Position numbers and translations under genes: made by a program. A stretch of DNA of 64,000 bases from Atractiella rhizophila (taxonomy: Eukaryota), in the NCBI GenBank assembly GCA_021432655.1, contig MU271264.1, forward strand, positions 1 to 64,000. Reading direction: 5' to 3'. Below the pieces are notes generated by a model, which was not told where the DNA came from, made no database searches, and worked only from the letters and a program-made list of their open reading frames with translations. This document shows positions 4,234-61,100 of the stretch, in pieces. Position 1 is the first letter of the stretch; each line of letters opens with the position of its first letter.

Positions 4234-7200
4234 ATGGCTCTTCCCGCGAGCCTTCTTCAGGCGCTCTTCTCCCTCTCCCTCCCGGCTGACCGCGCCTCAA
4301 CACTATGGCTGCGCTCTTTCTACGTGGTCGACGGCAGGGACACGCTGCCAAACGCGGTCTGGGAGGACCGAAGGGTGGAATGGTGCGTTGGCGCCGTATT
4401 GGATGGAGATGACGACTTGGATGGAGCAGAAGGACTCATGGATGTGGACGTGGAAGGGGAAGTGGGACAGCACACGGAGAGTAAGTCTTCGAGCGGGAGC
4501 GGAAGCGTCGTTCTGCTTGACCTACCCCCTGGAAGGGGTAAGCGTAAACGTAGTGTGGTCGAGCTGGACGACTCGGATGAAGTTGTTCTTACTGGTGGAA
4601 ACGGGAACGAAAGGGCGAAGAAGAAGCAGAAGGAGGATAAGAGATTGGAGAGAGGAAAGGAGAGAGAGGAGGAGGAGGAGGAGGAAGAGATTGATTGGTG
4701 CAATGAGGAGGAAAGGGCTATAGAAGGGGTCGATTACGAACATGCTTGGTACGTTCGTGCTCTCGCCTCGTTAGTGATGGGAATTAGGGTGTGAAGAGAC
4801 GAGAGGAAACTGAGAAAGCTTGGCTCCTAGTAGGGAGTTCTCTTTGTGTGGAAAGCATTCGTGTATAACGTTCCACTCCGTCTGCTTGAGTCTCTTATCC
4901 TCATTGGTAGTTAAGTACGCGCAGGGAGGTGGGACATTGCCCTGCAGACTCTCAAGCTCTTCACCGCTGACATGAGGAGGTGAACGCAATAAAGAAATAA
5001 CATCCTGGTGAAGGAGTAGCCACCTTCATGGAGCAGAAGTAGCTTTGCCGTATCAGTGTGAACCTATTGGCCTTTACTTCCCTGGGTTCTGTGTGGCCTA
5101 AGACAATTAGCTCAAAGTCGTGCTAAGAATATTGGCGGTATTGAAACGACAGAGAAATACATGAAAGAAAGTCGTCATTCGTATCGAAGCTGAGATTCGC
5201 CCTTTCCTGGATGTGATGCTCTATCGTAGGGTTTTTGTCAACTTTTTGATTTACGCGGTTTGACAATGAGAAAATGGACAGCTGCGAAAGCTAGATGTCT
5301 CCCTGAACAACTTATTCTCTCTTCTCGCCAACAGTATTTCCCTATTCTAACTACTACGATGATCAATCACCTATTTTTTTGTTGTTGTAGAAGTAAAACC
5401 TTTTTAGTAACAAAACAAGCCTGTTCCTGAAGCTGCTTCTTTACAAAACATTGGCCATTGGCTCCTCGTTGTAGAAATCCTTAATGTGGGTCACAAGGGA
5501 GAGAACGACTATATCTCAACAACTGAACTGACCTAACTACTTTGTGTTATTCATCCCATATTTTCACCCAAACTCGACAGCACAGTGGCATGAATGCCAG
5601 CGGTCTGATCTTTCTGAGGTACCTCCCAGTTGGTTTAACGAGATGTGTTCTTTCTCTACTCACAGCTTCTCCGGTTGAATATTTCTCATATTGACACTGG
5701 AGCAGTCTCGAAGCCCTCTTTTCGGACTTCCCACGAATATCGAAGGTCTACATACGCAAAGTTTGCAGGGACCATGGTGGATACTACGCTTCGACGTTCT
5801 TCAAACTTTCCAAAGATTCCGAAATGGAACGACCGCCGTTCGAATGGCTGAAAATCGAGCGAAAGGGGAAGAAAGCGAGCGTGTTGCAGGTCGATGATCT
5901 TGTTCGCGAGAGATTAGAACGAGAACGAGAGTGGTGTAGAGCAAAAAAAGGTTCGTGCTTGATCCTCATTCATTCAGCTCGATGATGAATGTTCGGATGT
6001 CTCTGCAGTCAAGGATGCACAAAGACGTGAAAAGGAGCACCGGGAACGATCGGAGAGGTTGGAACGGGAACGCATGAAAGCAATCGTAGCAGGCGATGAA
6101 CAGCTGGCGAGGGAGTTAGCGGAGCAAATGGAGAGCGGAGAAGGTATTGGAATTGATTGCGGGTGAGGTTCAATCGGCAGTCTTCAAGCTAAAGTTGACC
6201 ATGGAGGATCAGTTGCTGCTACGGCTCCTATGGTTTCAGCGAGATGATCCAATGCAGAGAGGGCCATCTGTTCTGCAAGGATTGTGTGATTCGATATTGC
6301 CAGGAACAGATCGGGAACCAAAAGGCGGTACGCGTCGCCTGTCGCAGTGGTAGTATTCTGCAATCTGCTTGCTTATGGACCGCTGCAGAGCATCAATTGC
6401 ATCGACGCAGACGGCTGCGACGATTATTTCCCTGATCAAGAAGTAGAAAGAGTGCTACCAGAGAAGGAACTGAAGCTACTACAAAGAATACGGCAAAAAA
6501 TTGAGCTAAATGCTGCCAACATCCAGGGACTTGAGGAATGCCCGTGGGTCCCTTTCTGCATCTTACCGACAACATGTGGCATTATCTCTGCATCTGATAG
6601 ATTCTGCCCTTTTGCGATGGTAATCGACAATCCGGAAGAGAAGGTGTTCCAATGTCAGAAGGAAGACTGCATGAAGATATCGTGCCGGAAGTGCAAGAAG
6701 GTCATTTCTTCTCCCTCATCGCAATATCGGGGAGACATTGATGCGGAACGCAGGAGAGCCATTTGCCGAAAACTTGTGAAGAGGTGGATCAAGATAAGAA
6801 GATTGATGGTCTCCATCAAGTTGAAGAAGCCATGTCTGAAGCACTTCTTCGAGTCTGTCCGAATGAACGCTGTAAGAATCGATTCATTAAAGAGGACGGG
6901 TAAGCATCTTCCTCACCACTTCTTTAACGCAGTTTGCTGACGCTGCCTCCCTGTAGGTGTAATAAGATGTGGTCTGTTTGTTTTCCTGATGCGCTTCTTA
7001 GCTAACGGGCGGCGCTACAGGTGCCCGTCATGTCGCACTAGTTCATGCTGTCTGTCTCCTTTCTGCTATGTTTCTGCTGCGAACGATCGAACATTGTCTG
7101 ATATGCAGACCTCTGTGGAGCCGTCGTCAGCGATTACAGCCACTTCAGGAATGCAGGCGGTATGCCTCTTGTTTGAGGTCCTAATGTTGTCTGTCTAACC

Positions 7201-7856
7201 TTTGGAATTTTAGCGAACTATGCTGGCGCTCCTAATTCAAATGCTCAATGCGGTACATCTCTACGTTATTTCTAATCCAGAAACACACTGTATACTGATT
7301 GTCACACCTGCTATGTGTAGATCTTTGGGATGACAGCAGGATGAAAGACCACAATCGGGTTGAAGAAGCGCGTCAGCGAGTTGCAGCAGAAGGTGGGTAT
7401 CCTTTCCTCTTCGTCGAGATGACCTACTCGCATTGATTTGTGGTCTCTAGTTGCGGCGAACAATGAGGCAGTAACGACTGAAGACGTCCAACGTCTCGCG
7501 AATGCAGCTCCAATTCCAAACAGACGCTACGACATGAATCCAGTCCTTCCATTTGGCGCTCGTCCAGGCGCCGCACCTCAGATACAGTGTGCGTATCCCT
7601 CTTTTCCAGCTAATGCAATTCTAAGAGCACCTGCAAAAAGACGCGAATATGTTTGGCCATGGATTAGCACAGCGTGTGTTCATTGCATTCTGCCTAGGAC
7701 CTTGCACTCAAACTGGGCATAGGGCTGGCATTCCCCCAACCTCAAATTAACGCCCCTATGCTCGCTTTCAATCCAGGACGCGGAGCTGAGATGCTTCGTC
7801 CCGTCATCCATGTTGCACGTGCTCCAGCCCGTGGGAGAAGGGCGAGGAGAAGATAG
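4234..7856 (+). CDS. RBR (RING1-IBR-RING2) E3 ubiquitin ligase, RNF216/TRIAD3-like
   Basis: Exon 1 (4234-4748, acidic) splices in frame across a 957-nt intron to LEALFSDFPRISKVYIRK. RING1: CGCCY...QCREGHLFCKDC...CIDADGC. IBR: CPFCPF...FQCQKEDCMKISCRKC...HLPKTC. RING2: CPNERC...IKEDGCNKMWCPSC...CYLC. The 3' exons are less certain. Confidence 0.85.
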
Positions 7857-8073
7857 CTCAAGCAGAGTTGACCACTGTTCTCGTTCACAAATCACTATCA
7901 CATTTGTTGCATGTGATCATCTACTCATTTTCTCACGTTTTTGCAATCGTAATGCTACGACTAATACTGTAACTTCTTCCTCAAATGCACATGATGCGAA
8001 GTCACGTTCGTCAAGTGGCGCTGTGTGTGAACGCCAGCGATCATCTGAAAGTGGAACAACATCCACAATAAGA

Positions 8074-9210
8074 ATGAGAATTGTCGCGCCGCTTCGTCGA
8101 TTGTCCAGCGCTGCGCTCCCTCCGTCCCCCTTCCCGATTCTTACCAGCGTTTCCTCTGTGCGGTCATGGCGTTCAGAACAGAAGGAGCGTGGGAAAAGAG
8201 TTGGGTTTGTGCCTACAATGGGAGCGCTACATAAGGGACATTTAGACCTAGGTTAGAATTTGTGAGCCTCTTCAGCCTGTTATTGCTATGTATCCGGTTT
8301 TGGGATACTGGGTGTTGATTACTTGCTTTGTGGGTGGCATGAAGTGAACGCATCCCTCCAGAAGACGGATTCTACAGTCGTCTCCATATTCGTCAATCCC
8401 TCCCAGTTCGCACCTCATGAAGACCTCTCCACGTATCCACGCACTCTGAACTCCGACGTATCGGCGCTATCCTCCCTATCCCTCCCATCTTCTACCACTT
8501 ACAAAGACAATTTTGCTCTTTTCTTACCCCCAGTCTCAGAAATGTACCCCACTGGCATCGTCCAAGACGTGTCTCAGCAGCGAGGAGCGTTCGTAGAAGT
8601 TTCTGGTCTTCAGTCAGTATTGGAAGGGTGGACGAGACCAACATTCTTCCGCGGAGTCGCGACTGTGGTCACGAAGCTGTTCAACATTGTGACCCCTGAC
8701 ACGGCTTTCTTTGGGCAGAAGGATATTCAGCAGGCGCTTCTCTTACGTCGTATGCTGAAGGACCTACATTTCTCCTACCCCACACCGGAACGTTTGGTTA
8801 TTTGTCCTACCACGAGGGAGGGGGATGGACTGGCGATGTCCAGTCGGAACGCTTACCTCTCACCCGCTGAACGGAAGCACGCAACTATTCTTCATCGAGC
8901 CCTAAGAAGGGGAGAAGCTGAGATTGCGGCTCTGAAACAGGTGGGGTTACAGGATGCAAGGAGAGTGAAGAGCATCATGGAAAATTGCATCGAGGAAGGC
9001 GTACAGGCGGCGGCAACGGATGGAGTGAGCGCAAAGAGAGACTATGTAGCTGTTTGTGGGAGGGAGCTGGATGACCTCACGGAAGAAACGGAAAAGGATG
9101 CAAGAGGTGAAGATTCTAGAGCTGTTGTTCTCGTTGGAGCTATTTGGGTTGGGAAGACGAGGTTGATCGACAACCTTGTTGTGGGATGGAATCTGAACGC
9201 TGCTTCCTGA
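8074..9210 (+). CDS. PAN6: Pantoate--beta-alanine ligase (pantothenate synthetase)
   Basis: Motifs GFVPTMGALHKGH, VSIFVNPSQF, RPTFFRGVATVVTKLFNIV, FGQKDIQQ, REGDGLAMSSRNAYL and TRLIDN; one intron near 8251-8343. Confidence 0.95.
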
Positions 9211-9304
9211 CGGACAACCTTAGTTACTCCTTGACCTCAGTCTCATCAAAAGTATGATTAGTGGAATGTATTGTGCTTGAGTCCATTAACCAAGCTTATC
9301 TGAA

Positions 9305-10817
9305 CTACTCTTTCCCATCTTCTGGCCTTATCCATCCCCCTCCGTCCCTCCTCTGCCCCCTTGCTACCACCTTCACTGTATCACCGACTTGGACAACTCC
9401 CGCACTACTCTTTGGTATCGTGTTGATTCCGAAACATGGCGAATACTTGTCTGCAGGGTCTACGCGTCGGTAGGAGGAGATGATCTTGTACGGTACGGTT
9501 TTGGATGGAACTCCTGTGGCAGGATCAACATTTGGTAGCTGACACCTGTGCATCCCAGCAATCCCATCAATGAGAGCTCTCCCTGAGGTGAGGAGAAAAA
9601 GGGCAAACGGAGAAACGAGGCTCACCGTCCACACCTCGTTACAAGATTGAAGATGTCCTTCCCTTCTCCCACCTCCAACCGTATCCATCCATCCTCTTCC
9701 CATTCCTCTGCTCCTTTAACCACCACATTAGGCCGAAAGCGTTCAATGACGATTTCTTCGCTTCCTCCCTCCTTCCACAGCTCCCTCTCCTTCTCATTCT
9801 TGATAATTTTCCCCTCCTGGGCATCCAACCTCACCCGACTCCAGACGTGTTGGAACGATTCTCGAGTGGTGACGAGGAATGGATAGCCGTCAGCGAACGC
9901 GGTGTGCGCACCACCGTTCGAACCTTTCCCACTCCCATAGTCCACCTCGTATGTGATGGTATTCCTACCCACTGCTCTTTGTTGTGAGCCTTTTCGAACG
10001 AGCAATACTTCCTTCCCGAGGTATTTCGAGAGTGCCTCATCCAGCGAGGGTTGGGTGGATGTAGCGGGGACTACTACATGGTACCCGTCTGTGGTGGAAG
10101 ACCAGATTTGAATGTCTTCATAGCGGGTGGATGAGGAGGGTGAGGGATCGAGAGGGACAACGTAGGTTAAAGGACCAATGAGAATGGTCAATGTGCCTGC
10201 GTTTTGATTGACAACAGGGTGGATAAGAACCATCTAATGTCATCATTAGGACTCCTGCTTTGGCCGAAGTGAAAAGGAGGGAAGGACGCACTTGAGGATA
10301 TTCTCTCGCGGTGCATTGTTTATGAGTTGTCGCGTCCACTACTACCCAATGCCTGTCATACTTTGAACAGGAGATCAATATTAGGCGCCGAAGACCAAGG
10401 AGAGCGCAAGAAACACCGACTTTGAATCCTGTCTCGGTGTATTCACAGGACTCGAGCTTCGTGCCCTTGCAGCTCTTCACGCGACATCTTCAGCCACCTT
10501 CCTTCGTGCCAATAATCAAAACGAACGCACTTTAATGGGGTAGACTACAAATCGTGCAATGAGATTTTCGCTTCCTATAGGTGCTGAGAGAAGAAGGACG
10601 AACCACAGAACAACGACACAACAAACAACCGCCGCTCGACGACATCATCCTCCCTCAACAAGAAGCCGACGAGAGCATCCAGGACTGCTCGGAAGAAGAA
10701 CAAAACAACAAAAAAGAAGATGGCCACAAAGAAGAGAACAGACAACAAGAAGAAGGCAACAAGAAGGAAAGAAAAGAAGAAGAACGACACCAACAAGGTC
10801 GTTGCGTTCGTCGCCAT
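9305..10817 (-). CDS. MOSC_N + MOSC domain protein (mARC-like molybdenum cofactor enzyme) with hydrophobic N-terminus
   Basis: Spliced motifs YPIK|SCKG, YDRHWVVVD..TAREYPQ|MVLI, FADGYPFLV, IERFRPNVVVKG..W.EDGW, CGRCQLPNVDP.TG and FGIN...GVVQVGD. Exon 1 lies in a suspiciously T-poor tract. Confidence 0.88.
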
Positions 10818-13503: not shown

Positions 13504-13606
13504 GGGTATAAAAAGCCGCGTTCCTTTGCCCTTTCCTCCTTTCCCTTGGCTGACTCGAAGGAACCTCTTCGTCCGTCCCTCGCTGCGTCCCGAGTATATA
13601 TATTCG
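13504..13606 (+). promoter_or_regulatory. Candidate TATA elements (TATAAAAA, TATATATA) upstream of the cyclin gene
   Basis: GGGTATAAAAAG at ~13504 and GTATATATATTC at ~13594, with CT-rich tracts, 40-140 nt before the ATG at 13647. Confidence 0.4.
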
Positions 13607-13646
13607 TCAAATCTCTCCTTTAGCCCACAGAAGCAACTTGAACATC

Positions 13647-14969: not shown

Positions 14970-17227
14970 TTACAACCCTCCACCACCAAGCATATACTCG
15001 ATAGCAGACTGCACGTCACCTCCATTAGCCATCAGTGCGCGTATATTCTGGCTCGCATTCGTGAATCCCATTTCACGCAACTGGCCCAACTGAACCTGTT
15101 CCCGCCAAACGCCAAAAGAAGGCAACCATGAGCAATGAAGAGGATAACGAGTGCGAACAAACCTCGAATCGCTCTTCTGGCGGTCTAGTGTCCGTAGGCT
15201 GGACAGGAGGAGCACCAAACATGCCGCCGCCCATCCCGCCCATACCCATTCCCTGCATCCCTCCCATAGCTTGCATCATGCGCATCATCGACGCCAAGTC
15301 GGGCTGTCCTTGACCCTGACCCAGTCCCTGGTCGGCAAGCCCTGGCGTTGTGCCAGAAGGAGCTGGGGTCGTGTTTGTTGCTTGCGCCTGATTGAAGAGA
15401 TTCCCTGCCGGTGCTCCTGCTGTAGTTGAAGGTGTGGTGCCAGCGGTAGTCGAAGGCGCTTGTGGCATTCCGAACATGCCTCCCATGCCCCCCATGCCTC
15501 CCATACCGGGCATACCGCCCATACCTCCCATTGCTCCTCTCATACCTTGCATTTGACGCATTAGGTTGGGCTACACCACAACACCTCATTAATTTTCTCC
15601 GTTGAACGATATATATACTAACGTCTGTTAACATCTGTCGATACCTGAATAGAATCTTTCAGAACGGCACAGGAGAATGGGAACAGTCTCACATAGGGAT
15701 CCTTAGCATTTCTCTAAGCATGGGACCCATTTGACGCAGCTCAGGCGGTCCTTGCTGGATCTGTCCCATGAGATGAGTTGGTATACGCTAGAATCAAAAA
15801 CAGAGGGGAGGGGCATACCATCATATCAACGAAGTGAGGATCTTGGAGCATTGTGTCCATCTGCTGGCGAAATTCAGGCGAGTCCATCATTCCGAGCATC
15901 TACCTATGCTGTCAACCTAGAAATATCAGGAGGGTGAAGGTAATGCACCTGATTGGGATCGTTCAGGTTTCCACCGAAAGGGTTGGCAATCTGTTGCATA
16001 GCACCAGCGAGCCCAGGTCCATACCCAGTGTTCGAGGCGTTGAGTAATGGCGCAAGGGGATTGTCTGCTCCCGGCCATCTGGAATCAATTGCATGTACCT
16101 GATGGGAAGAAGGAGGTTTTACGCACTCGCATACTGCTGTCCGACTTCGATATTTCTCGGTACATTATTTGTTGTACCTGAGCCGGACGATGAAGGTGCA
16201 GTCGAGCGAACGGCACCTTTCACTAGATGCATGGTGTGACCATTCTGGTGGAAAATCAGCTCCCTTTAGTGAATGTTCTGTGATATCGCCACATCTAAAA
16301 GAATACTAAGTTTCTAAAGATTTTGAGAACAGAGTAACATATGGTGCAATCACGCTCCAAAACTTATCATGTGAAAGGATAGAATGAACATAAATGAGGG
16401 ATAATCTCGACAAGGGTTAAACTCGTTTGGATACTTTGTCATTGCTACAGATCATAACGTGTAGAGCTCTATGAACACGTCAAATGGATGAGAGAGTTGG
16501 GACAAAGTCACAGATTTGAGGAACGAAATGCAACTTAGTTAAAAGCTCATTAGCACGTCCATTCTTCACAATTGCGCAGCGATCAAGTGAACACGCGAAC
16601 ATTGGGCAACTAGGGCATGGGGTGAAGAAGAAAGGAAGAGGAGAAGAAATTGAAACGTGTGACTTCACTTCATAGCGGCATCTGAAGCGGCTCTGTAAGA
16701 GTGGCGGATCACGTAAATGCATCTCTTCGGATATCCTCAGACGTGCGATGAAACTCTCGAAAGGTCGCAAGACCTGAGCATGCTATGCAAACTCGGATTT
16801 GTTCCTCGGTCCATGCATGGCTGTAGACGGAAAGAGCTCTAACAGATGGAGAGAAGGGTATCCGCCAACGGCGACCGCGGGAAGTGGCTACAATGATTTG
16901 AAATCACCCAGCATATGGGCGGCAGAAAAGTTCATTCTTTTCGAAACGACAGAACAAAGAACCGTCGTGCACCACATGTGCCTCGCCACCGACAACATGA
17001 GCACTCACCTTGATCCCATACGAATCGACCTGATCTTCGTCTTTTAGAACCCTTCCAGAATAAATCAACCTCAGCTGCTCCTTCTTGACCTCGCCTAGGC
17101 GCTCAATCTCTGGAGACTTGACCTCGATCTTCTCTTTGAGCTCGAGCACAGTGATGGATGGTGGAAAGGTGATGCTGAATGAGACGCTGGACGGTGCGCG
17201 CACTGTGACGGTAATTTCTTCGGCCAT
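14970..17227 (-). CDS. DSK2: Ubiquilin (UBL-STI1-UBA proteasome shuttle)
   Basis: N-terminal UBL with LRLIYSGRVLKDEDQVDSYGIK|NGHTMHLVK, Met/Gly-rich STI1-like middle, C-terminal UBA PPEERFE|VQLGQLREMGFTNASQNIRALMANGGDVQSAIEYML. Confidence 0.93.
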
Positions 17228-17465: not shown

Positions 17466-20400
17466 ATGATTAGGAGATTCTCTACCTACAACACTGCGCG
17501 AGCTGCGTTGAACCGGTATTCACGCACCATAACTCAGCCAAAGTCACAGGGAGCAAGCCAGGCTATGCTTTATGCGACGGAAGGAGTGGACAGCGAAGCG
17601 GATTTGGAGAAAGGAATGGTTGGGGTGGGAAGTGTTTGGTAAGCTTTCAATATTTTCTATCTGTGGTGAGGTTGCGTTGTTTGTTTTCACAAGCCATCAT
17701 AGTCATGAATCACGACTATGGCTTTCTTTCATTTGAAACTGGGTTCCAATGAGACATTAGATTCTACAAGTCGCTCTGAAGAATCAGTATCAATATAGAA
17801 TATGACAGGCTTTTTGTTCAGCCGCTGAAAAAGTAAAGTTATTCAATTCAGTCATGCCTAACTCAGCCTTATTGTACATTGATGTCCCGAATATCTCGTG
17901 GTCATTATCGTTTTCTGAGGGAGCCGTAAATAGTCGGAATTTTTTGCAAAAGTTCACACCTTCTATCATCGAGGAAACCTTGGGATGTCATCACCTTATA
18001 TCTATGAATCCTACTTAATTATTGTAACAAGTTCCGTTCGACAGGATTATAAGTTGATGACAGCAGTCTTGAGTCTGTCGACATCACCAGCAATAATATT
18101 TTACCATTCCTCAACGATGGGCTTCTCTTTTAGTTAGCATCAGAAGACCAGATACTCAAATTTGACTACTGGAGTTGAAGGCAAGGAGATAAGCCCTACA
18201 TTCAAGACCTTTAAACCGGCTTTATTAGAAAGTACGACCAATGTTGTGGTGAGCCACCTCCGGTCGTTATAGCTTTACACTTAAATCGCTCAGCCCTCAG
18301 TTGCAAATTAGCTGCAGTAGCCAGTCGTATTACTCTTACTTCAAGTTCAAATAGTATAGTGGTACTTAGTTACGTTTTGTATGTCCTGATACACAAATCA
18401 ACCGCCTCAGCACTGTTCTCTCAAGTTGCAGAATCATACGCATGTTGACTACACTTTGCTTCCAATGACCTGCAATGCTTCGTCATTCCCGTGATGATAA
18501 TTACATGATTCCAAGGAAGCTACCTCAATCCCCACATACTTATGGCCCTCGAGCCGTGTGTTTGGTAGAGTTAGCACAAAAAGGGTTGACATGTCTTCAC
18601 GTTAACTGATGACTTCCTGTACCTCACCTCGAAACGCACACTTCAAACCGCGAACGGGCTTGCCAAAACTCAATTTACACTAGCCAGAACAAATCAACTG
18701 ATGTCTGCACAGGTACGAGGGAAATCCATGCAACAAGCATACCCTAGAGCTTGGACGGCGCGCAAAAAAGTCTGTACAAGACGCAGGGTTAATTGGGTAC
18801 CAGTTCGGAACTATTGGCGTCTCCGTGCGTCTCCTTCCGCTTTGAGGAGGGGAGGTGATGATGTTGAACACAGTGAATAGGATGGCATCTCTATGGGGAC
18901 TTCAGGAATGCGGTACTCACTACAAAGGTCGGTTTCCTTCTAGATATCTAAAATCAAACCTGAGGACAACATAGTCGAGATCTCATTGCGGACCAGTTTG
19001 AAACAGCCGTTAAAGGTCATTGGTTAGATGGACTAGTGGCCATTCCCGTACGCTGCCTCTTTTCCGCTGCAGACAAGAGAGGCTGAATGCATCTTGTAGT
19101 CCTGTGACAAGAACATGTAAGCGTTCTTTAGGAAGCGACGTTCCCTTCTCATATCATCAGGCCCGGATCCCTCATCGCTATGGGGCGAATTGACCGTCCA
19201 TCTGTAATGGTGTACGGCGGTTCCATCAGACCTGGAAACCTCTGCCTATCAAATGGAACCAACGAGCCGATTGATATCGTGTCTGCGTTCCAGTCCTATG
19301 GTGCTTATTTGGCTGAGGGTTCTACTGTAGGTTTTCGCCATTTTTTTTATAAACCTGGGTCCAACATCGTTGGGTGCAGGCAGAAGCGGAGGATAAGAGA
19401 AAGAAGACTATCAAGAATGCTTTGGGCAAAGGATGTGGAGCCTGTGCTGGTGCGGCAATTGTGTTCCAGTCTATCAGGTCATTGACGCCATGCGAAGGAA
19501 TGTATACAGCGAACACAATGGCCTCCGCTGCAGAAGCACTGGGCATGTCACTCCCTGGATCGTCCTCTTTCCCTGCAGATTCTCCTGAAAAATTAGCGGA
19601 GTGTGACTCCATTGGTGCCGTCCTCAGAAACTTGTTGGAGATGGACCTGAAGCCGAGTGATATCATGACACCAAAGGCTTTCGAAAATGCCATGGTTAGC
19701 TTTTTTTGCTAATACCGTGCTAACTGCTCACAATCATACTCAGATTTTGACCATGATTCTTGGAGGCTCGACCAATGCAGTGCTTCATCTGATTGCCATC
19801 GCCCACTCAGTTGGAGTGAACCTGACCATTGACGACTTTCATCGCGTGTCAGACAGCACTCCTTTCATTGCTGATCTAAAACCGTCTGGCCGTTACGTGC
19901 GTCGTTTCTCTCAACTTTCCGCTCTTTGACAAGGTGTGGTGTATTAGGTCATGGAAGACCTTCACAAAATCGGAGGAGTCCCCGCAGTCCTCAAGTTCCT
20001 CCTGAAGAACAAGCTCATAGATGGCAGCGGAATGACTGTCACCGGCAAGAGCTTAGAAGAGAACCTCTTCTCTGCTCCTGATCTCCCCAGCGGCCAAGAC
20101 TTGTTGCGACCACTTAATCAGCCAATCAAGAGCACAGGTCACATCCGGTTTGTTACTCCCCTTTCCTTCTTAGAGATTGAGTGAATCTGGTCAAATAGAA
20201 TCCTGAAAGGTTCACTCGCGCCAGGCGGGGCAGTGGCAAAGATCACTGGAAAGGAAGGACTTTCTTTCGTCGGAAAAGCGCGTGTCTTCGATGACGAGGC
20301 GTCGATGGTTGCAGCGGTCGAAAAAGGAGAACTCAAGAAAGGCGAGAAGACGGTCGTCGTCCTGCGATATTTGGGACCTAAGGGGGGTCCAGGTGCGGCG

Positions 20401-25969: not shown

Positions 25970-28317
25970 TCACTCTCCTTCCCCTTGCATGACTGGTGCA
26001 GGTATGCCCCTCCTGTCCCTTTCCGCCCTCTCAACATACCTCTCCAACACTTTTATTGCGTCCTCGACCTTCAATCCGTTCTTGATTACATGAAATTGAC
26101 GTGCACCTTCAGCTTTCTTGGCTGAGATGTCGGAGAGCATGGACATGATGGCGGAGTAGACGAGGGAGATGTCATCTATTATCTATCCTCACATTTATAG
26201 TCACACATAACAGCTTTAAGGGCCAAAGGGGACTAGAGACAAACCTCAGAAGTGTATGCTTGCGTATGGCGAGCCAACTCGAGCTCACGGTTTATAGCCT
26301 CCTATCTGTGACATCAACATCGTCTTTCAGAAGGCAAACGACATACCTTTCCTTCCCCTGAGATAGCGGGGAACCATTTCCACTGTCCTTTCTTCTTGTT
26401 GACATGTCCCACCACCTTCTCTGCGCCTTCATAAGCTCTGGCACCCCACTCCCTTGCCTCAGTTGCTTTCTCCCTTGGGCCGTTAAGCGCGACCCTCATG
26501 ACCTCAAGGTGCTCATCGAACTCTCCAAGGAATCGGGCATGAGCCTTACTGAGCGTTCTGAGGGGATACCGCCTCGGGTTCTCCAGCATGGTCTTCAAAG
26601 CGGTGACGCCGTCGATGATAGCGTCGATGCGGATGCGGAGGACACCAGAAGCGGTGAACAAGTCGTTCTCGAGCTCTCGAAGCGAGTGTTCCCACCTCCC
26701 GTAGTCGGTGGCGACGGCAAAACGTTCGGGGAATGTGCTCCCCTCCAAGATGTGCACTCGGAGCTTCATCGCACTGTCTGCGTGCAAAGGAGCGTTCGCG
26801 GGATGGGTGAGACGCGAGAGTCCCGCCGTGATGCTGCCGAGGTGTTGAGCGTGAGATGTGGCAGAGGTGGCATAGTAGGACAAGTGGACGGGAGAAGGAG
26901 GGAGGAGCGGCAGAGTACAAAAGTAGCCTAAATTGTGGCAGTACCAGGACGAGAGGGATGTAAGTTGAGCAAATGGCGAAAATGAGAGGGAGGGGAAGGA
27001 TGGGAAGGATAGGGATGGTACATAGGTGTGGAGCCAAGTTGGGAGGAGGAAGGTGACGATGAATATTAACCTAAGGAAGGTAATCGAGTCAGTTTGGGTT
27101 TACAAAGAGTTATATACAAGATTTCTGCCTGTATCGCTATAAGAACCACGAAGCCCATCATAGTATAAGAGGCACGTCTTTTTTGCAAGAAAAAGCTTTA
27201 ATTTCACCAAGAGGGATATGAGCCCCGTAAAACAACGGTAACATTCGACTCAAAAGGAAAGGCGAATAAATCGAGAGCGAAAACAGTAACACTTTGTGTT
27301 TTACTGAAATGTCCTGAGGCAACCTAAATGAGCAGGCTGCAGTTCAGGTCGACTATGTTGGCTTCCACTGAACCAAGGATGCACCAGAAAAGTTCAAATC
27401 ACTCTGATTATTATCCACCGCAACGGATGCTCAACGTACGGTGTCTGAAGTATCCTAGCCAATCAAGGAGATGCAGGTTTACGAAATAGGATCGTAGTTG
27501 TCAAAACCGAGTTCGCCTAGGACAATGTCCTCATACCGAGATATTCACAAACGACAAGCAATTAGTGCAACGGCTACTCGTTCTCAAATTTCTTCTGCTC
27601 CACAGGAGCGCGTGACATTGCATTTAGCGATATCATCCTTGACCTCTGATATTTACTTTATTCCTGAAGCGCAAACTACGATGGAAAGCGATGAACTGAT
27701 TTGGCGATGGAGAACATAGGTGAGGGACTGAAATGACTCAATTCTCTCTGTCATTCTCGCTGGCATTGTGAGTGTGAGGCCAGAGAATGCGAGAAAAAAG
27801 GCTGAAAAACTATCCCGAGTCTAATGCACCTCACATGCTGATAGACTGTGCATCGATATTATAATATTGTGAAGATAAATCGCCTTTTCTAACAAGAGGA
27901 TAATTAAAAGCAAAAGGAAGAAAATACGTACGCAAGTTTGAACATTGTTGTCGAGAAAAGGATGGGCAGCAATGTCTTGAGCACCAGGATCGTAACCTCC
28001 ATCCCCTGTCCCTTTTGCACGCCCGTTTCTGTCTGTCTCCTTCTATGAATCTCCTCCACCAACACATCCTCATTCAAGCTTACCCGTTCTGAACGGACGG
28101 TGGCTACCTTCCTCCTCCTTTTCGTTGGGGATCCTGGTGGACTCTTCGTATTCAAGTTCTTCTTTTTACCTGGAGACATAGATGCTGATGCCGTTGTGTT
28201 GATAGTGCCACCGGTACGCAATGGGGAAGTTGAAGACGAGGGGTCGTCGCTCCATCCATCCTCTTCATTCGCTGATTCATTGGAAGGATTAGCGTATCGA
28301 GGTGTGTTGGGAGGCAT
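25970..28317 (-). CDS. Hypothetical membrane protein: disordered basic N-terminus, hydrophobic segment, helical C-terminal region
   Basis: Exon 1 (28317-27932) joins in frame across an 861-nt intron to LIFIVTFLLPTWLHTY..., continuing into the 26314-26883 ORF. The last exon ends ...MQGEGE* at 25970. No family recognised. Confidence 0.6.
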
Positions 28318-45324: not shown

Positions 45325-46859
45325 TCACTTCGTTCCTCTCCTAGCTACCTCTTCCGGGTTCTCAATCACAAAGCTCTGCGGGACCTTAACGACAGGAGGT
45401 ATAGGCGGGAACTCATCCGTAGGCGACTTCCCATCCGCTCCATCGTTCGGACTCTTCATCGGTGGAGGGAACGGGAACTCAACCGCGTCCCTCTCGCTGC
45501 TCTTCCCAAAAGGGGTCCACCGAGACGAAGATGATTTGTTAGTCTTGGTCGTGACTGCTGTCTGGGAGGAAGCGTTGGAGATGTGCGATTGTGTGGATCC
45601 CTTTCGGAGCCGTGAGAGCTGGCCACCCTCGACTTGCGATTCGGGTCGGTTCGTGAAGGCGTATGCCTTCTTCGGAGAGGAGCTTGAGAGAGAGGCGCGA
45701 CGTCGGCGGCGGAGGTAGAGGTAGAGAAGGGAGGTGAGGAGGGAGAGAAGCACGACGCCGCCGAGCACTGTTTTAATTCTTGATTAACTTTCCGCGTGTC
45801 GTAGAAGACAGGCAGAAGGGAGGCTCACCACCGCCTACGATTGCTCCAACATTCGACTTCTTCCCGCTGCTGGCTTGAGTGATGAAGCCGACATTTTTTC
45901 CGAGACATCCATTGTTCGAGTTCGGGACGACAGTGAGAGGAAATGAGCATTCGGTGGGAGCTTGCGCCGGTTCGTAGCATACTCTGTCCATGCCGATCCA
46001 TATTTAGACATAGGGAAGGATAGAGGCAGTGGGGACAACGTACGAGAGTGCGGTACGACCTTTGATGTCAATCGTCCAGTTGCAGGAGGGACCCGTGCAG
46101 AGGACGTTTTCGAGAACTCTGTAAATCAGTTGAGGGTCAGTCTCGTTCTTTTCGGGACATTAAGGGGACAGGTGTTGGCAAGACAACAGGTTTCCACTCT
46201 TTGGTATAAGAGATAAGTAATAATAACAGTGTCCGATGGAATGGAGCTTCATACATGAGGTTTATGACCATGTACCATGCGTAAATGTGGTTTACGACCA
46301 TACGAGCAAGTTCAGGCACACATACTATTAGGTCCCCTCCGGAGCAGAGTAGCATCATTTGCATTTCACAGCCCAATCAATACGAGCTAGTCTCCATGAA
46401 TGAGATCTTGTTCCTCTTGGAGGAAACGTAGGATGTATGGATGCAGAAGACTGCACGGATGGTGCTTTATAAAGCTCGACAGCCTGCACGTTCTGGAAAT
46501 CATCACCGCCTGTGCAAGATAATGAACTCGGTGTACAAAGATACACCTAGGCTTTACCTGCAACGTAAGGGACAATCTGCATCTGCCATCCCCGTGCCAT
46601 CCAAAACAAAGCAGAAGGACAAGCGAACGATGCAAAACATTACATCATCCTTTCCCAAATCCTCTCTTCCTCTCCAATGGCAACGGCAAGGCGCAGCCCC
46701 ATTCTATTCCATTTCGGAGACAAAAAGAATAATAGCAACTTACAATGCTCCCTGCCTAACAACAGCAGTCCAGACCTCCCCATCTGCGGCCCCCTCCCTT
46801 TCAATCTTCACCGACGCGCACTGGTCGGGCTCTCCTTGGACGGTCACTGCTGCCGACAT
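45325..46859 (-). CDS. Single-pass membrane protein with small Cys-containing N-terminal domain (Mid2/Axl2-like TM segment)
   Basis: Spliced: MSAAVTVQGEPDQCASVKI...GAL|VLENVLCTGPSCNWTIDIKGRTAL|SVCY...NNGCL...SNVGAIVGG|VLGGVVLLSLLTSLLYLYLRRRRR plus a cytoplasmic tail. First intron is 625 nt. Confidence 0.65.
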
Positions 46860-54246: not shown

Positions 54247-54270
54247 TGATTGATTGATTGATTGATTGAT
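54247..54270. repeat. (TGAT)6 microsatellite
   Basis: Six perfect TGAT units; a shorter copy near 54325. Confidence 0.85.
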
Positions 54271-54658: not shown

Positions 54659-56583
54659 ATGTACAAGGAAGACAATTGGGATATGGATGTTCCTTTGGAG
54701 GAAGTTGCAGCTTGTGAGCAGGGTTGTAAGTTCTCCACTTGTCAATGTTCTTGTGAAGTTGAGGTTCTTGACCTTCGAACTTCATTGTTCAACGTTCGTC
54801 CCTGGCGGCTTTCTTCCCTTCTTAATGCTGCTGAAGCAGAAGGCGGTTGAAAATCTGGGTATCCTAGTGATCTCTCTAGCTTTCAAGGATCGTTATTGTG
54901 TGAAATCTGACGTTGCGAACAGCAAGCTTTAGGACGCAGAAGCCTCTTTCTTTGCCAAATGAAGTGCTTGAAGAAATCCTGTTTCATCTTCCTCCACGAG
55001 TTATCCGCAGACATGACTCTCGAGCTGCCGCCCTCGCGGCAACCTCGCTCGTGTGTAAGGTACGCAGGGAGTTCTTCTACGTCATGCGTTCATCTTTGTT
55101 TGGGTAGCAATGGTACGGAGCGTCTCAACGCTTGCTCTATCGGGAAGTGGATCTGAAAGATATGTCCCGCGAGACAATCAAGATCGTCAAGGTGCTTTCG
55201 AAAGAAGAATCCAAGAGAGATCTGGTCAGGTCTGTCATTGGAGAAATGATGAAGGCTTTTCCCATCTTACAAATGGCGGCTGCTTCAATCACAAACCTCA
55301 ACCTCGAAACCGTCGCCTCACATGTCTACACTCTTCCTCCGTTTCCAAATCTTTTGGTTTTGAAGTACACGACAAAACGGACGGAGTCCACATTTCAAGC
55401 AGTCTTTTCTAGCAGCATCCTTGCGATTTTTCCTCATCTACATAAGAGTTCAAGACTTCAGAGCTTGTCCCTCGGAGGAGAGGTATCTCTTCGATATCCA
55501 AACCCGAACGATAACATCCTATTGCCTGACTTAGCTTCCTTGACGGATTTGAAGATCGAGGATTATCGTGCTTCAGAATCGCAGCCTCTGACGCTGCTTT
55601 TCCCTCTTGGGGAATCTAAATTGAAGAGACTTTGCGTTGAGAAAATCGGATTGGCATTCTGGCGCCATATCGTCGATTTGGTGACCTTGGCGCAGAGTAC
55701 CTTAGAATCTCTCCGGCTTCAAGTTTTCAGAAACGTATATTCTAGTGGGGAGACAGTTTCTGAGTACCGATGTCTTCCCCAGTTACCGGAGCTGCGACAT
55801 CTCTCTGTCGTCGAGAGCGATGATCCCGGGGCCATGCTTTGGTACTTGAGTCCAAGTCAGGATCCTGCAGCAACTCCCTTCTTCGCGCTATTTCCACAAA
55901 TCTCAATGTCTCGTCATCTAACCAGTTTGGAAGTTGATCAACTTGCTTTCGTTTCACACGAGGGAATGCCAAAAACACTTCCTCTCCTTTCTCTCAAAAA
56001 ATTATCCGCACGTCAAATTCCTCAACTCGATCCCCAGATATTTTCAGCGATGTTTAGTCAATCCGAAAGTCTTGATTATGTAGAACTGAAACACAATTAC
56101 GTTGGGCTAGGACGCCACGAGCCACTTGTTTCCATCATACAGTCACTCCATTCGAAGGTTCCTCTCTCCATAGCAATAGGGGCTACGGCAGAGGCCGTTG
56201 ATGCAGCTGTGGCGGTGTGTCGGGCAGCCCTCCACCATTCAAAGATTGAAATCACCATCCAGGCCCCATTGTTGGCTGAAAATGAGGAGTTTTTTCGTTT
56301 CTTGGAAGAAAAGGACGCTGCCATCGAGATTCTGCAGCTTCAGTTCGGATCAGTGCAATTTTTCAGATCTGGTCGTCGCACTGAATTTGTTATTACTGCG
56401 CTTAAAACCATAGAAGGTAAATTGAAGCACAGTGACGCTTTACGAAACCTCAGGGAACTTAGACTACGTTTTCTTTTCCTTGAGGGTATTTATCATCGCA
56501 AAGATCAAGTTCGTGCTGAAGAAGACCGCCTCAATGTAGCTCTAGACAGAAGAGGCATAGTTCATACTTGCGAATATGCCTAA
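54659..56583 (+). CDS. F-box protein with LRR-like (RNI-like) repeats
   Basis: F-box motif LSLPNEVLEEILFHL...LAATSLVCK|QWYGASQRLLYREVDL, then repeated LxxLxL units (LQSLSL, LTDLKI, LKRLCV, LESLRL, LRHLSV, LTSLEV). Exon 1 (54659-54725) is tentative. Confidence 0.78.
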
Positions 56584-58101
56584 CACGATCCTCTGAGCTT
56601 TGTAAAGTGCTTTCCAATACACCTTTGGTGGAGTCAAAGGACATTGGTATTTCCAGAGTGCTCGTCTTCAGGAAAACAAGCTGGCCCATGTGTTTACATA
56701 GCTTAATGCACAATAATACAGTATCAAACAGTTCCACTTTTCCGCCCGTCAAAATTTTGCGCGAAGGCCGTTTATCGGTTTTCTAGCGCTTCCAACTCGC
56801 GTTCTTTTCCTCGTGCAGCCTCCAATCGAAACTCCAGCTTTTGAGTATCTGAGCATGTCAGCCGAAGTAGAAGACCAGGTGCCTAAGCCCGAAGGCGCTG
56901 AGGTGGCTGAGAATGGGATAAATGGGAATGGGAATGAGAATGGGACGAATGGACACGCGGAGGATGATGGGACCACGATCGGTGAAGGTGTGTATCCATT
57001 TCAAGCGGTATGAAGATGAGCTGGTAGGTGGCATGAGGCACCGCACGTCAAATTCCTCAACTCGATCCCCAGATATTTTCAGCGATGTTTAGTCAATCCG
57101 AAAGTCTTGATTATGTAGAACTGAAACACAATTACATTGGGCTGGGACGTCACGAGCCACTTGTTTCCATCATACAGTCACTCCATTCGAAGGTTCCTCT
57201 TGCTATAACAATAGGGGCCACCTCAGAAGCTGTTGACGCAGCTGTAGCAGTATGTCGGGCAGCGCTCCACCATTCAAAGATTGATATCACCGTCCAAGGT
57301 CCATTATTGGCTGAAAATGAGGAGTTTTTTCGTTTCCTGGAAGAAAAGGACGCTGCCATCGAGATTCTGCAGCTTCAGTTCGGATCTGTGCAATTTTTCA
57401 ACTCTAGTCGTCGCACCAAATTTGTTATGACCGCGCTTAAAGCCATGGAAGGTAAATTGAAGCACGGTGACGCTTTGCGAAACCTCAGGGAACTCAGACT
57501 ACGTTTTCTTTTCGTTGAGGGTATTTATCATCGCAAAGATCAAGTTCGTGTTGAGGAAGACCGCCTCAATGTAGTTCTCGACAGAAGAGGCATAGTTCAT
57601 ACCTGCGAATATGCCTAACACGATCCTCTGAGCTTTGCAAAGTGCTTTCCATTACACCTTTGGTGGAGTCAAAGGACATTGGTATTTCCAGAATGCTCGT
57701 CTTCAGGAAAAGAAGTTGGCCCATGTGTTTACATAGCTTAATATGCACCAATCCTCAGTAATACAAGAATGCTAGTACTCTTGATTCAAACAGTTGCACT
57801 TTTCCGCCCGTCAAAATTTAGCGCGAAGGCCGTTTATCGGTTTTCTAGCGCTTCCAACTCGCGTTCTTTTCCTCGTGCAGCCTCCAATCGAAACTCCAGC
57901 TTTTGAGTATCTGAGCATGTCAGCCGAAGTAGAAGACCAGGTGCCTAAGCCCGAAGGCGCTGAGGTGGCTGAGAATGGGATAAATGGGAATGGGAATGAG
58001 AATGGGGCGAATGGACACGCGGAGGACGATGGGACTACGATCGGTGAAGGTGTGTATCCATTTCAAGCGGTATGAAGATGAGCTGGCACATGGCATGAGG
58101 C
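56006..58101 (+). repeat. ~1.04-kb diverged tandem duplication (3' end of F-box gene plus exon 1 of the next gene)
   Basis: Copy 1 is 56006-57040 and copy 2 is 57041-~58101. Both start CCGCACGTCAAATTCC; they differ by scattered SNPs and an intergenic indel. Confidence 0.92.
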
Positions 58102-61100
58102 GTTGTGCTGGCCTTTGACGGCTTCTGCACTTATCTTACTTTGGAAGGACCACTGCACTTTCAGAAGGGGACAAGCTGGACAAGGAAGTTGGATTGAGAA
58201 GCATATCCTCCCTTACTGCTTCCTTTTTCTCAACACAAGCGTGAAGCGAAGTGGCAGCACCTATATGCAGCTTAAGAACGTGCCAAGGGCCGTTATTAAA
58301 GCTTCCCTCAGTAGAGATATTCGCTGAAGAATTGTTCGGTCTTATTTGCGCACAAACGACGTGTCTGGATCCTCCATGCCAGGACGTTCTTCTTACGTGG
58401 AGTCCTGCTTGGGAGAAGGGTACCAATGTGACTGGTGTCCAGCTTGAGCCACGTATGCTGTCCGAAAAGGCGATTAGACACAGAAAACAGTTCCAAATAG
58501 CCGATTGTGTTAATCACTTGCTGTTCTTTCTAAAGCTTGTGGCTGCCTGCTGACTGAATAAGTGTGCTAGTTTTCCCTATGCAGAGATCTTATGAAGTAG
58601 AATATGGCGCTGACATCGGATCTTTTAGCTGTGACCACCGATGCCACCCCACCAGCTTCCTCTCCCACACCAACCGACCCAGCTACGCCTTCCGCCCCCG
58701 CCGCTAAGCCGGGCGAAAAAGCAAAAGTCCCGACTGCCAAAGTGAGCGCTGGCGTGAGATCTCCACTAAAGAAACCAGCCGGAACCACCACAGCAGCAGG
58801 AGCTCGCCCGGCTGCCTCTTCCACCACAACCGCGACGAAGACGGGTGTCAAACCATCCGCTACGGCAACAACCAAAGCGCCTGCCGCTACTACCGCCGCT
58901 TCTAAAGCACCTCTCAAAGCTGCTTCAACTGCCACAAAACCGACAACTGCTACAACGAAGACAACTACCGCTTCCAAACCTCCCGCTACTGGCACCACCA
59001 CCACTTCCACAGCACCAAAACGGACTTCTCTAGCTTCTTCAACTGCCACCAAACCCGTTGCCTCTACCACGGCAGCAGCAGGCACAGCAGCGAAGCCAAC
59101 GCATGGTCGGACACCAAGTATCGCGACGGCGGGAACCACCACTCGTACAACGGCAGCTACAAAACCAGCTGCTTCCTCTACCACCGCTGCCGCTACGACG
59201 AAAGTTGCTCCTACCCGTACAAGCGCTTCCACTACAGCGACGAAGAGCACGGCTGCTCCGGCAGTGAAGAGGACCAGTGTCTCCACTGGGAGCGGAGCCG
59301 CAACTGCAGCGAAGGGTAGTGCAGGAGCGGGAGAGAGCAAGGAGTCGGAGAAGAAGATTGCTGAGCTTGAAGCGGCGTTGGTGGAGAAGGAAGCGCTGAT
59401 TTCTACGATTAATACGGAGCTGGAAGGGCTGAAAGGAACGATTGAAGAGCTGATGACGTTGAAAGTCAAATATGAAGAGAGTACAGGTATGACGGACGCC
59501 TCGCTGCTCGCCGCTCAACAGGAGCTAGCCGCTGCTAACGAGAAGCTCGCTACATTGGAAGGCTCGGATACTTCGAATGCGGAGAAGCTCAAGGAGTTGA
59601 TTGAGAATCAGGAGCGGGCGTTGAAGGATGTGGAGGAGGCTAGGGCGGAGGGAGAGAAGCTTAGGGAGGAATTGGAAGGGGGAAAGGAGAGCCATGCGAG
59701 GGCGATAGCTGAGATGATTGAGGGTCATGGGAAGGAGAAGGAGACCTTGAAGAGCGCGGTAGAGGAGGAGAAAGCCTCGTTATCTGTTCAGATTGAGGAG
59801 TTGAAGAAAGAACTGGAAGGCGTTAAAGAGGAGAAGAAGGCATTGGAGGAAGAGTTGGAGAAGGCGAAGGCGGATTACGAGGCGAAACTCGCCTCTTTAA
59901 CATCTGAAGGAGAATCTAAGGCATCCCAGGAGCTGGAAGCCCTCAAATCCTCCCATGCCCAAGAGTTGGACTCTCTTAAATCTTCACACGCTGAACAGCT
60001 CTCCTCCCTTGAATCGAAGCATGCTGAAATCCTAAAGACTGCCACCGATGCGCAAGCCAGCGCTGCCGTCGCTCTAGCAGAGGCTCAAGCAGCGACGGAC
60101 GTCGCCTTGCAGGGTCTGCGGGAAGAGCATTCGACGGAACGAGAGAAGTTGTTGAAAGAGGCGGAAGAGAATTCTACGAATATTAAGGAGGCTGGTGCGA
60201 AGGAATTGGAGGCTCAAAAGGAGTTGTTGGAGCAGTTGAGAGAGGAAGGCGAAAGGAAAGTGGAGGACATAAAGAAGGCATCGTTGGAGGAACTAGAGGC
60301 AAAACAAAAGCTATGGGATGAGGAGAAGGAGACACTTAATGTTCAGATGAGCAAGCTCGTGGACCAGGTTTCGGTGCGTTCTTTTTTGCGCTGCGGCTCT
60401 ATATTGTGTGAGACTGAGTGCAACAACAGAATATGGAGGAAGAGTACAACGCGAAACTTGAAGCAGCAAAGAACGAGGCAAGAGGAGAGGCCAGCTCGGG
60501 TCATCAAGATGAGTTGAGCCAGTTACGGAAAACAATGGAGGAGTCCATTCAGCAGGTTTGTTTCTGCCATTCTCGATGTGAGCAATGGTTAATGGGACGA
60601 GGAACAGTTCCGGGCATCCCAACAAGCTGAGATTGAGTCGATCACCAGTTCGAATGCGGCCAAAATCACTTCTCTAGAAGCAGACCACCAATCAGCCCTC
60701 GGAACGCTGCAAATGAATCTGAACGCGACAGAGTCTGACCTCGTCAAATTCAAGACTATGGCTGCTACCCTTCAAGAACAGCTCGAAGATGCGCAAGAAA
60801 AAGCACGCCAGCTGGAGGTTCGGTATGCTGCTCAGGCTGCTTCAGCATCAGAGGACAAATCGGAAGCAGATAAAGCGAAGGATGTGCGGATCGCTGGGTT
60901 GGAGCACGAGTTGAAGACTTTGACAGAGTCACTCAAGAGTTCTGAGGAAGCACAAAAGGAAGCAGAGAAGACTCATCAAACGATGCTCGATTCACTTTCC
61001 AAGATTCACGAGGAGAACACGAAAACGAAGACCGAGGAATGGGTGTTAGATCTCAAACGGGTTGAGGACAGGCTCGCTCAATCGAATGCTGAGCACCGTG

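Follow-up and report, generated by a model that had tools for sequence, protein, structure and literature searches.

First introns of 0.6-1.1 kb among introns of about 50 nt in Atractiella rhizophila: probably ordinary spliceosomal introns grown long, with end pairing at chance level

In the 64,000-nt stretch of Atractiella rhizophila DNA analysed here (the window) about six of roughly 24 genes carry an intron of 579-1074 nt, and the reading that we favour, with a probability of around two in three, is that these are ordinary U2-type spliceosomal introns, first in their genes, which have grown in this lineage. Intron lengths fall into two classes, 44-67 nt for the 25 short introns verified or modelled and 579-1074 nt for the long ones (a size ratio of 11-21 fold), and none lies between among the introns checked; an earlier preliminary description of the window had put most other introns at 40-90 nt. 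The set follows the longer-first-intron rule, locally and to an extreme degree. The same description had raised a distinct class of structured regulatory introns, and of this the discrete long first introns stand, while the structured part does not, since the helices that bridge the intron ends are real but occur at chance level. The features are collected in Table 1.

Table 1. Positions in the window of the long introns, their first exons and one end-bridging helix arm
Feature	Positions	Strand	Basis or remark
RBR-ligase exon 1	4234..4748	+	ATG 4234; frame open up to GTACGT donor
RBR-ligase long first intron, 957 nt	4749..5705	+	GT..AG; TTGAC at -12; RNA depth arithmetic
DSK2 (ubiquilin) long first intron, 764 nt	16245..17008	-	RNA joint 16244->17009
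DSK2 end-bridging helix arm	16968..16979	-	pairs with 16337-16348; 12 bp including one G-U
DSK2 exon 1	17009..17227	-	ATG 17227; X24 contig and translation
ILV3 exon 1	17466..17638	+	ATG 17466; head-to-head with DSK2
ILV3 (dihydroxy-acid dehydratase) long first intron, 1074 nt	17639..18712	+	RNA joint; GT..AG
Proposed membrane-protein first intron, 861 nt	27071..27931	-	GTACGT donor; CTGAC at -19; frame kept; putative
TM-protein long first intron, 625 nt	46119..46743	-	junction needed exactly by annotated P0002
TM-protein exon 1	46744..46859	-	residues 1-39 of P0002
Coiled-coil exon 1, second copy	57917..58049	+	first copy at 56856-56988
Coiled-coil long first intron, 579 nt	58050..58628	+	GTGTGT donor; CTGAC at -16

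As read from the sequence, all six long introns begin with GT and end with AG, the donors being GTACGT in the RBR and membrane genes, GTGAGT in DSK2, GTAAGC in ILV3, GTAAGT in the TM gene and GTGTGT in the coiled-coil gene, and each has a CTRAY-like branch motif (TTGAC, CTGAT or CTGAC) 12 to 19 nt from its 3' end. Open frames are joined across every one of them, including within SVW/YEGNPC of ILV3 and YGIK/NGHT of DSK2 (the slash marks the junction), and so the coordinates, splice signals and exact frame restoration of the preliminary description hold for all six. The junction check by RNA that it proposed reached three of the genes, with direct joints for two of the six introns (DSK2 and ILV3) and contig depth for the RBR intron. 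It relied on run X24, which behaves like the transcriptome of a slightly diverged strain (15 of its 56 joints listed); runs X1, X2 and X12 gave small shares over parts of the stretch. The DSK2 joint skips 764 nt (CT..AC) at a depth of 1620 in X24 and is present in X1 too, the ILV3 joint in X24 (17637->18712) skips 1074 nt with GT..AG, and both introns are real. Because one X24 contig runs unbroken over 17009-17638, through both start codons, these two introns are the first of their genes. The DSK2 model (385 aa) has introns of 764, 62, 49, 58, 48, 52 and 67 nt, and the ILV3 model (591 aa) has 14, one of 1074 nt and then 13 of 44-56 nt. For the TM gene the modelled introns measure 625, 60 and 61 nt, and the model is identical to the annotated 262-aa protein P0002, long first intron included. 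In these three fully modelled genes the longest intron is thus the first (of 14, 7 and 3), for which random placement gives a probability of 1/294; the claim that the long intron is always first therefore stands for DSK2 and ILV3 from RNA and for the TM gene from annotation, the other three genes being incompletely modelled. A Python ab initio gene finder fused some genes and missed others, finding 19-23 of its 28 training introns when workably set, and no count is taken from it.

Some of the age of these introns can be read from ILV3. A metagenome scan for its relatives kept 80 loci, two of which (L001 and L002) passed a filter of at least three matched pieces or more than 65% identity, and L002 alone showed a split, intron-bearing ILV3 and reached the first intron. 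The codon position and phase of that intron (TG/G in SVW/YEGNP) are common to the window and to this fungal contig, which comes from a distant fungus (the two share 59% identity over the C-terminal ILV3 exon), but the intron is 56 nt long there, and so its position is old and its length lineage-specific. Judged by its letters the interior of the long introns looks unconstrained: the window and X24 differ at 9 places in 88 nt of the DSK2 intron (16845-16932), and at 10 places with 3 gaps over the 630-nt contig of first exons and promoter. On the favoured reading splicing would use the canonical GT, branch and AG signals, and old introns would have lengthened to 0.6-1.1 kb by gathering non-coding, fast-diverging sequence, with neighbours of about 50 nt. 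Such growth may have been neutral or weakly selected, possibly bringing in promoter-proximal regulatory DNA. The ends would meet since any long RNA folds with its ends near, and a dedicated bridging helix would not be needed; the shuffle-like donor-to-branch distances given below agree with the ends-near folding treated by Yoffe et al. in the part of that paper available (PMC3017586).

Whether some of the long introns are instead intergenic spacers or untranslated leader, and hence gene-model artefacts, turns on the less complete models. The NCBI annotation makes 4234-4791 a separate 186-aa protein (P0008) that reads through the RBR donor, and RBR exon 2 was not found in any database protein of at least 143 aa (65 candidates, none scored). 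However, the same X24 contig depth of 31.6 is seen at 4500-4656, 5904, 6094 and 6901-7021, and the mean depth of 6.03 in the bin 5167-5833 is what about 127 nt at 31.6 would give, a length matching 5706-5833; by this arithmetic one contig would link exon 1 to the exon beginning at 5706, and so the NCBI split is probably wrong. The RBR joint is absent among the 15 of 56 X24 joints listed, Pfam assigned the 216-aa ORF at 6290-6937 to no family, and the identification of the gene comes from Cys/His patterns read by eye. For the coiled-coil gene a comparison of exon 2 with 1.84 billion representatives gave four weak matches (E at least 6e-6) and no self-match, leaving the model without a database protein match, and exact look-up finds no record of the unspliced exon-1 ORF. 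In this gene the exon-2 frame, open from 58601, lacks a Met over roughly 300 codons from its beginning, and a start codon must therefore be supplied by an exon further upstream. The proposed membrane intron has GT..AG ends and a branch motif and keeps the frame, but it lies upstream of Met 26769, where the annotated protein P0001 begins, and the 100-codon extension upstream of P0001 (27069-26770) has a noncoding-like coding score of -0.072; the unspliced exon-1 ORF is likewise not on record by exact look-up (one of three such ORFs is, that of the RBR gene). Since DSK2 and ILV3 have RNA joints, RBR has the depth arithmetic, the TM gene has its annotation and the coiled-coil frame lacks a start of its own, an artefact would apply to the membrane gene at most, and as an account of the long introns it is very improbable.

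A structured form of splicing control, in which a helix between the donor side and a segment ahead of the branch point would bring the two effectively closer, in the manner of yeast zipper stems, was the central idea of the preliminary description. Helices of 8-14 bp can be drawn in 6/6 introns, with one arm 19-50 nt past the donor and the other 56-130 nt ahead of the acceptor, at about the distances it had given, but chance gives as many. The fractions of dinucleotide shuffles that do as well are 0.98 for RBR, 0.027 for DSK2, 0.63 for ILV3, 0.007 for the membrane gene, 0.097 for the TM gene and 0.45 for the coiled-coil gene, so that DSK2 and membrane beat their shuffles while RBR, ILV3 and coiled-coil are at the shuffle mean or worse. 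Against natural intron sequence the putative membrane intron alone stands out among the six; the DSK2 helix is equalled or exceeded in a fraction of 0.085 of natural-sequence controls and lies outside the linker limits of yeast zipper stems. By arithmetic the best helices of DSK2, ILV3, the membrane gene and the TM gene all exceed the 85-nt linker limit. A stem of at least 6 bp within the yeast positional rules is present in 6/6 introns, but 88-99% of the 200 shuffles made for each intron have one too, as do 29/30 mismatched end pairs, so that having one tells nothing either way. Scored as zipper stems, the introns are matched or bettered by shuffles in fractions of 0.265 (RBR), 0.715 (DSK2), 0.445 (ILV3), 0.250 (membrane), 0.425 (TM) and 0.030 (coiled-coil), the 12-bp coiled-coil helix being inside the yeast positional limits and beating 97% of shuffles. 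The true 5'/3' partners beat 88% of 720 permutations (test value 0.124) and 94% of 265 derangements, a lean towards true partners which is weak, and a modest true pairing effect could be present with n=6. MFE z-scores of the long introns run from +2.0 to -1.6, and predicted donor-to-branch structural distances are 30, 1, 26, 20, 12 and 31 in window order, no shorter as a set than the shuffle medians of 26, 26, 25, 28, 23 and 33. The comparison with shuffled and mismatched-pair controls that the preliminary description asked for thus finds pairing no better than chance, the outcome it had itself set against its proposal, and so the structured-intron idea is unsupported and improbable.

A further reading is a mobile-element or ncRNA-host origin, by introner-like or transposon insertion or with a hosted snoRNA or other RNA. 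Introner-like elements of fungi also recur as unusual introns in unrelated genes; their copies share sequence, and here the six introns share none: within the window no similarity of intron to intron or intron to window was found apart from the coiled-coil duplication, no k-mer excess or shared motif was seen among the six, and no terminal inverted repeats were found. None of the six matched a known family in Rfam, whether by gathering score or with E allowed up to 10. Such an origin is favoured by the breakpoint of the tandem duplication, which lies inside the coiled-coil long intron, and by two weak candidates of C/D-box type (membrane and TM introns, vs 0.2 expected in shuffles), but the candidates are 191-195 nt with 4-bp stems, and we give this reading almost no credence. 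In each of the six introns every one of the six reading frames has a negative coding log-odds score. The preliminary description was right that the introns lack shared primary sequence and a credible internal ORF, and the Rfam and, within the window, all-vs-all comparisons that it had proposed found neither the hosted ncRNA that it suggested nor an anciently inserted element, shared or mobile.

That the long introns are regulatory first introns, acting by intron-mediated enhancement, as promoter-proximal enhancers for short shared promoters or through a poison exon, is possible though unlikely. The parts available of PMC3141229 and PMC8157754 describe intron-mediated enhancement by introns close to the promoter in plants, animals and fungi. 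The six A. rhizophila introns resemble these in position, being 116-515 nt past the ATG and so no more than a few hundred nt from it, but they have no motif in common. DSK2 and ILV3 share a divergent promoter with 238 bp between their ATGs and each has a long first intron, but the RBR and coiled-coil genes have no divergent neighbours, and the two visible interior stretches show high divergence between window and X24. An X24 contig of depth 21 (vs 351) joins ILV3 exon 1 to about 18138-18143 within the intron, where by eye there is a good 3' splice site with a GTGAGC donor at 18249, and inclusion would bring an early stop; this low-level joint hints at unproductive splicing via an internal poison exon, and the segment could be a regulated alternative exon, although it is a single low-depth contig of a diverged strain with 5 unexplained letters between the two sides. 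More doubtful again is that A. rhizophila has bimodal intron lengths in which first introns of 0.6-1.1 kb, in about a quarter of its genes, serve as regulatory modules by promoter-proximal enhancement or poison exons.

The favoured reading of ordinary introns grown long in this lineage sits within a known rule. First introns of coding sequences are longer across eukaryotes, fungi included, by about 40% overall in the part of Bradnam & Korf 2008 available (PMC2518113), and in A. rhizophila genes too the 5'-most coding-sequence intron is the longest, but with an 11-21 fold excess and two-class lengths. This excess, far above the general one, and its presence in about six of 24 genes hint against simple growth and at a second length class, perhaps selected. 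The long introns of S. cerevisiae (e.g. RPS17B) are alike in bimodal lengths, in a long class that is mostly the first or only intron and in drawable donor-to-branch helices; the hosts here are not ribosomal-protein genes and the genome is intron-rich (14 introns in ILV3). In yeast, zipper-stem stability is above that of shuffles and is seen by DMS probing too, so far as the accessible part of Rangan et al. 2025 goes (PMC12350175), in contrast to the chance-level helices of A. rhizophila, four of six best ones being over the linker limit. An end-bridged structured intron class outside budding yeast, which would be new, is not supported by the evidence here, and what stands is an extreme instance of the rule already known. 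No literature on introns of A. rhizophila was found, the Atractiella genome papers among the matches listed being, by title and abstract, on other subjects. Lengths of 44-67 vs 579-1074 nt, with the long intron first in the modelled genes, make a clean case for asking why first introns grow. The practical bearing is mostly on annotation: with gene finders set for introns of 50 nt, A. rhizophila genes whose first intron is about a kilobase long come out split or truncated. The RBR ligase is split in this way, its first exon being annotated as a separate protein, and the membrane gene may be truncated likewise.

The six long introns are probably ordinary spliceosomal introns that occupy the 5'-most position and have grown 11-21 fold. 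All six start with GT, end with AG and have strong donors (see the table), and all carry TTGAC, CTGAT or CTGAC 12-19 nt from the 3' end. Open frames are joined at each of the six junctions, as the preliminary description had it, for example in ILV3 (SVW/YEGNPC) and DSK2 (YGIK/NGHT). Besides the 64-kb window itself, the analysis drew on four public runs and a single metagenome scan, and the sample is six introns, of which one is doubtful (membrane-protein gene) and two are known from models only.

The models of ILV3 and DSK2 combine RNA joints with conserved motifs and continuity of the reading frame. A contig of the RNA run X24 is unbroken from 17009 to 17638 and spans both start codons (DSK2 at 17227 on the minus strand, ILV3 at 17466 on the plus strand), and so the long introns of these two genes are truly first. 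P0002, the protein of 262 aa annotated for the TM gene, is identical to the model proposed earlier, whose introns measure 625, 60 and 61 nt. The claim that the long intron comes first thus holds in all three modelled genes, and the chance of the longest intron being first in all three alike, if randomly placed, is 1/294. Short neighbours are borne out too: the 25 short introns checked (including two of the annotated membrane protein P0001 and two of a gene at 13.6-14.1 kb) are all of 44-67 nt, and no length between 68 and 578 nt occurs among the introns checked. First introns are the longest across eukaryotic genes, fungi included, with a reported overall excess of only about 40% (PMC2518113); against that figure the 11-21 fold seen here makes the magnitude, together with the two-class look, the unusual feature.

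Features of the window, with gene models and intron lengths
Feature	Position	Strand	Details
Long intron, RBR	4749-5705	+	donor GTACGT
Long intron, DSK2	16245-17008	-	donor GTGAGT
Long intron, ILV3	17639-18712	+	donor GTAAGC
Long intron, membrane (proposed, doubtful)	27071-27931	-	donor GTACGT
Long intron, TM	46119-46743	-	donor GTAAGT
Long intron, coiled-coil	58050-58628	+	donor GTGTGT
ILV3 model		+	591 aa, 14 introns: 1074, then 56, 47, 52, 44, 53, 48, 49, 51, 51, 50, 46, 52, 53 nt
DSK2 model		-	385 aa, 7 introns: 764, then 62, 49, 58, 48, 52, 67 nt
Micro-exon, ILV3	19100-19116	+	17 nt, placed, frame kept
Micro-exon, DSK2	15623-15644	-	22 nt, placed, frame kept
Further micro-exon	between 6901 and 7021		RNA contigs
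Further micro-exon	between 21969 and 22094		RNA contigs
Further micro-exon	between 10991 and 11047		RNA contigs
tRNA gene	52-133	-	Rfam RF00005, 55.6 bits
Open frame, 1281 codons	36981-40823	+	most G+C-rich part of window (0.52-0.58)

Alignment of the four runs to 4500-24499 gave 56 joints, of which 15 are listed, and 249 variants, of which 40 are listed. X24 behaves as the transcriptome of a slightly diverged strain, its joints being GT..AG or CT..AC at depths from below 1 to above 6000. The DSK2 intron is crossed directly by a joint from 16244 to 17009 (764 nt skipped, X24 depth 1620), present also in the run X1, and the ILV3 intron by one from 17637 to 18712 (1074 nt skipped). The other 13 listed joints skip 47-120 nt, and the two largest of these skips, 113 and 120 nt, each have a micro-exon inside. 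Such micro-exons, of 11-22 nt between pairs of introns of about 50 nt, appear as letters between the joints of RNA contigs.

For RBR the junction is supported by depth arithmetic, its joint being absent among the 15 listed of the 56. An identical per-contig depth of 31.6 is found for the pieces at 4500-4656, 5904 and 6094 and for the joint 6901-7021, and the mean depth of 6.03 in the bin 5167-5833 is what a piece of about 127 nt at depth 31.6, covering 5706-5833, would give. Together these indicate one contig linking RBR exon 1 to an exon starting at 5706, and so we infer that exon 1 is spliced exactly at the proposed acceptor. The NCBI annotation makes 4234-4791 (plus strand) a separate 186-aa protein, P0008, in which RBR exon 1 is read through the donor into the intron; the depth pattern contradicts this, and the annotated gene appears wrongly split. 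RBR exon 2 was not found in any database protein of at least 143 aa.

Exon 2 of the coiled-coil gene has a frame that is open from 58601 and free of Met for roughly its first 300 codons, which requires an ATG exon upstream, and a database search found no confirming protein for the model. The membrane-gene intron is proposed only and is a doubtful member of the six: the annotated P0001 (230 aa) starts at Met 26769, downstream of it, the 100-codon upstream extension scores as non-coding, and the gene is without homologues.

The preliminary description proposed that these may be structured first introns, with complementarity bridging the donor and acceptor sides in five of the six. Such helices are present, of 8-14 bp, 19-50 nt after the donor with partners 56-130 nt before the acceptor, but six different controls do not place them above chance (figures below follow the order RBR, DSK2, ILV3, membrane, TM, coiled-coil). 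For duplex energy between nt 7-60 and the last 150-10 nt, the fractions of 300 dinucleotide shuffles per intron at least as stable were 0.98, 0.027, 0.63, 0.007, 0.097 and 0.45, and matched ends averaged −28.9 kcal/mol against −26.5 (sd 7.6) for 30 mismatched pairs. When tiles of 140 nt cut from real introns served as partners of the 5' segment, the membrane intron alone was unusual (as stable with 0/26 tiles from itself and with 4% of those from other introns), the other five giving 0.12-1.0. The best ungapped helix gave 0.84, 0.085, 0.52, 0.12, 0.12 and 0.05 against 141 natural tiles. Donor-to-branch graph distances in minimum-free-energy folds were 30, 1, 26, 20, 12 and 31, against medians of 26, 26, 25, 28, 23 and 33 for 30 shuffles, and for no intron was the distance shorter than in shuffles at a value below 0.05; fold z-scores were +2.0, −1.6, −0.5, −1.3, −1.5 and +1.3. 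The equal closeness of the shuffles' ends in predicted folds agrees with the general result that a large RNA necessarily has its two ends near each other (PMC3017586).

Under the yeast positional rules for zipper stems (PMC12350175), a qualifying stem of at least 6 bp occurs in all six introns, in 88-99% of shuffles and in 29/30 mismatched pairs, only the coiled-coil helix being nominally unusual (0.03). Reassigning 3' to 5' ends gave energies as stable as the true assignment or more so in 12.4% of 720 assignments and 6.0% of 265 derangements. End pairing is at most a weak trend. Pairing no better than in shuffled controls is what the preliminary description itself had named as refuting, and on that measure the structured-intron idea fails. 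For Saccharomyces, by contrast, the reported enrichment has a Wilcoxon P below 1e-4 (PMC12350175). The two-class look is like the bimodal intron lengths of budding yeast, whose long class, however, is marked by stabilised zipper stems that are not demonstrable in the six introns here.

The interiors gave no Rfam match, whether at gathering thresholds or with E allowed up to 10. Shared 6-8-mers are not in excess, there are no terminal inverted repeats, and a C/D-box scan gave two weak candidates of 191-195 nt whose stems are of 4 bp. Two earlier statements are upheld: every one of the six introns has coding log-odds below 0 in each of the six frames, and in BLAST comparisons the introns resemble neither one another nor the remaining window, with one exception, the 52 nt at the start of the coiled-coil intron. 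These lie in a tandem duplication of about 1.03-1.06 kb (56008-57039 and 57040-58101), the breakpoint lying inside the long intron. The duplicated unit holds the 3' part of a 491-aa ORF (55108-56580; second, partial copy at 57037-57615), the intergenic region, coiled-coil exon 1 (with its ATG at 56856 in one copy and 57917 in the other), the donor and those 52 nt (94% identity).

Intron interior diverges fast between strains: the DSK2 stretch 16845-16932 differs from X24 at 9 of 88 nt, compared with the 17009-17638 contig, which over 630 nt has 10 differences and 3 gaps, and by eye a 30-letter loose end in the ILV3 intron has 4 mismatches and a 9-nt gap. A metagenome scan queried with the last exon of ILV3 returned 80 loci and no close relative, and only the fungal contig L002 has a split, intron-bearing gene reaching the first intron. 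Its intron lies at the identical place and phase (AGTGTCTG/gt...ag/GTACGAGGGAAACCCG, SVW/YEGNP) and is of 56 nt (7978-8033), and so the position is old and the kilobase length was gained in the Atractiella lineage or lost in the other.

A regulatory role of long first introns is possible, and two observations hint at it. DSK2 and ILV3 are transcribed from a common divergent promoter, with 238 bp between start codons and a long first intron each, and an X24 contig of depth 21 (main form 351) links ILV3 exon 1 with the interior of the intron, at about 18138-18143. This contig runs on the plus strand from 17638 to about 18143-18202, with five unmatched letters (TATTC) between the sides and then diverged sequence; by eye there is a plausible 3' splice site at about 18138-18143 and a GTGAGC donor at 18249. 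The joint may reflect an alternative acceptor or a poison exon (candidate 18138-18248, which if included brings an early stop codon), a strain deletion or a chimeric contig. Elsewhere in the window, the 1281-codon open frame matches no Pfam family at E up to 0.01.
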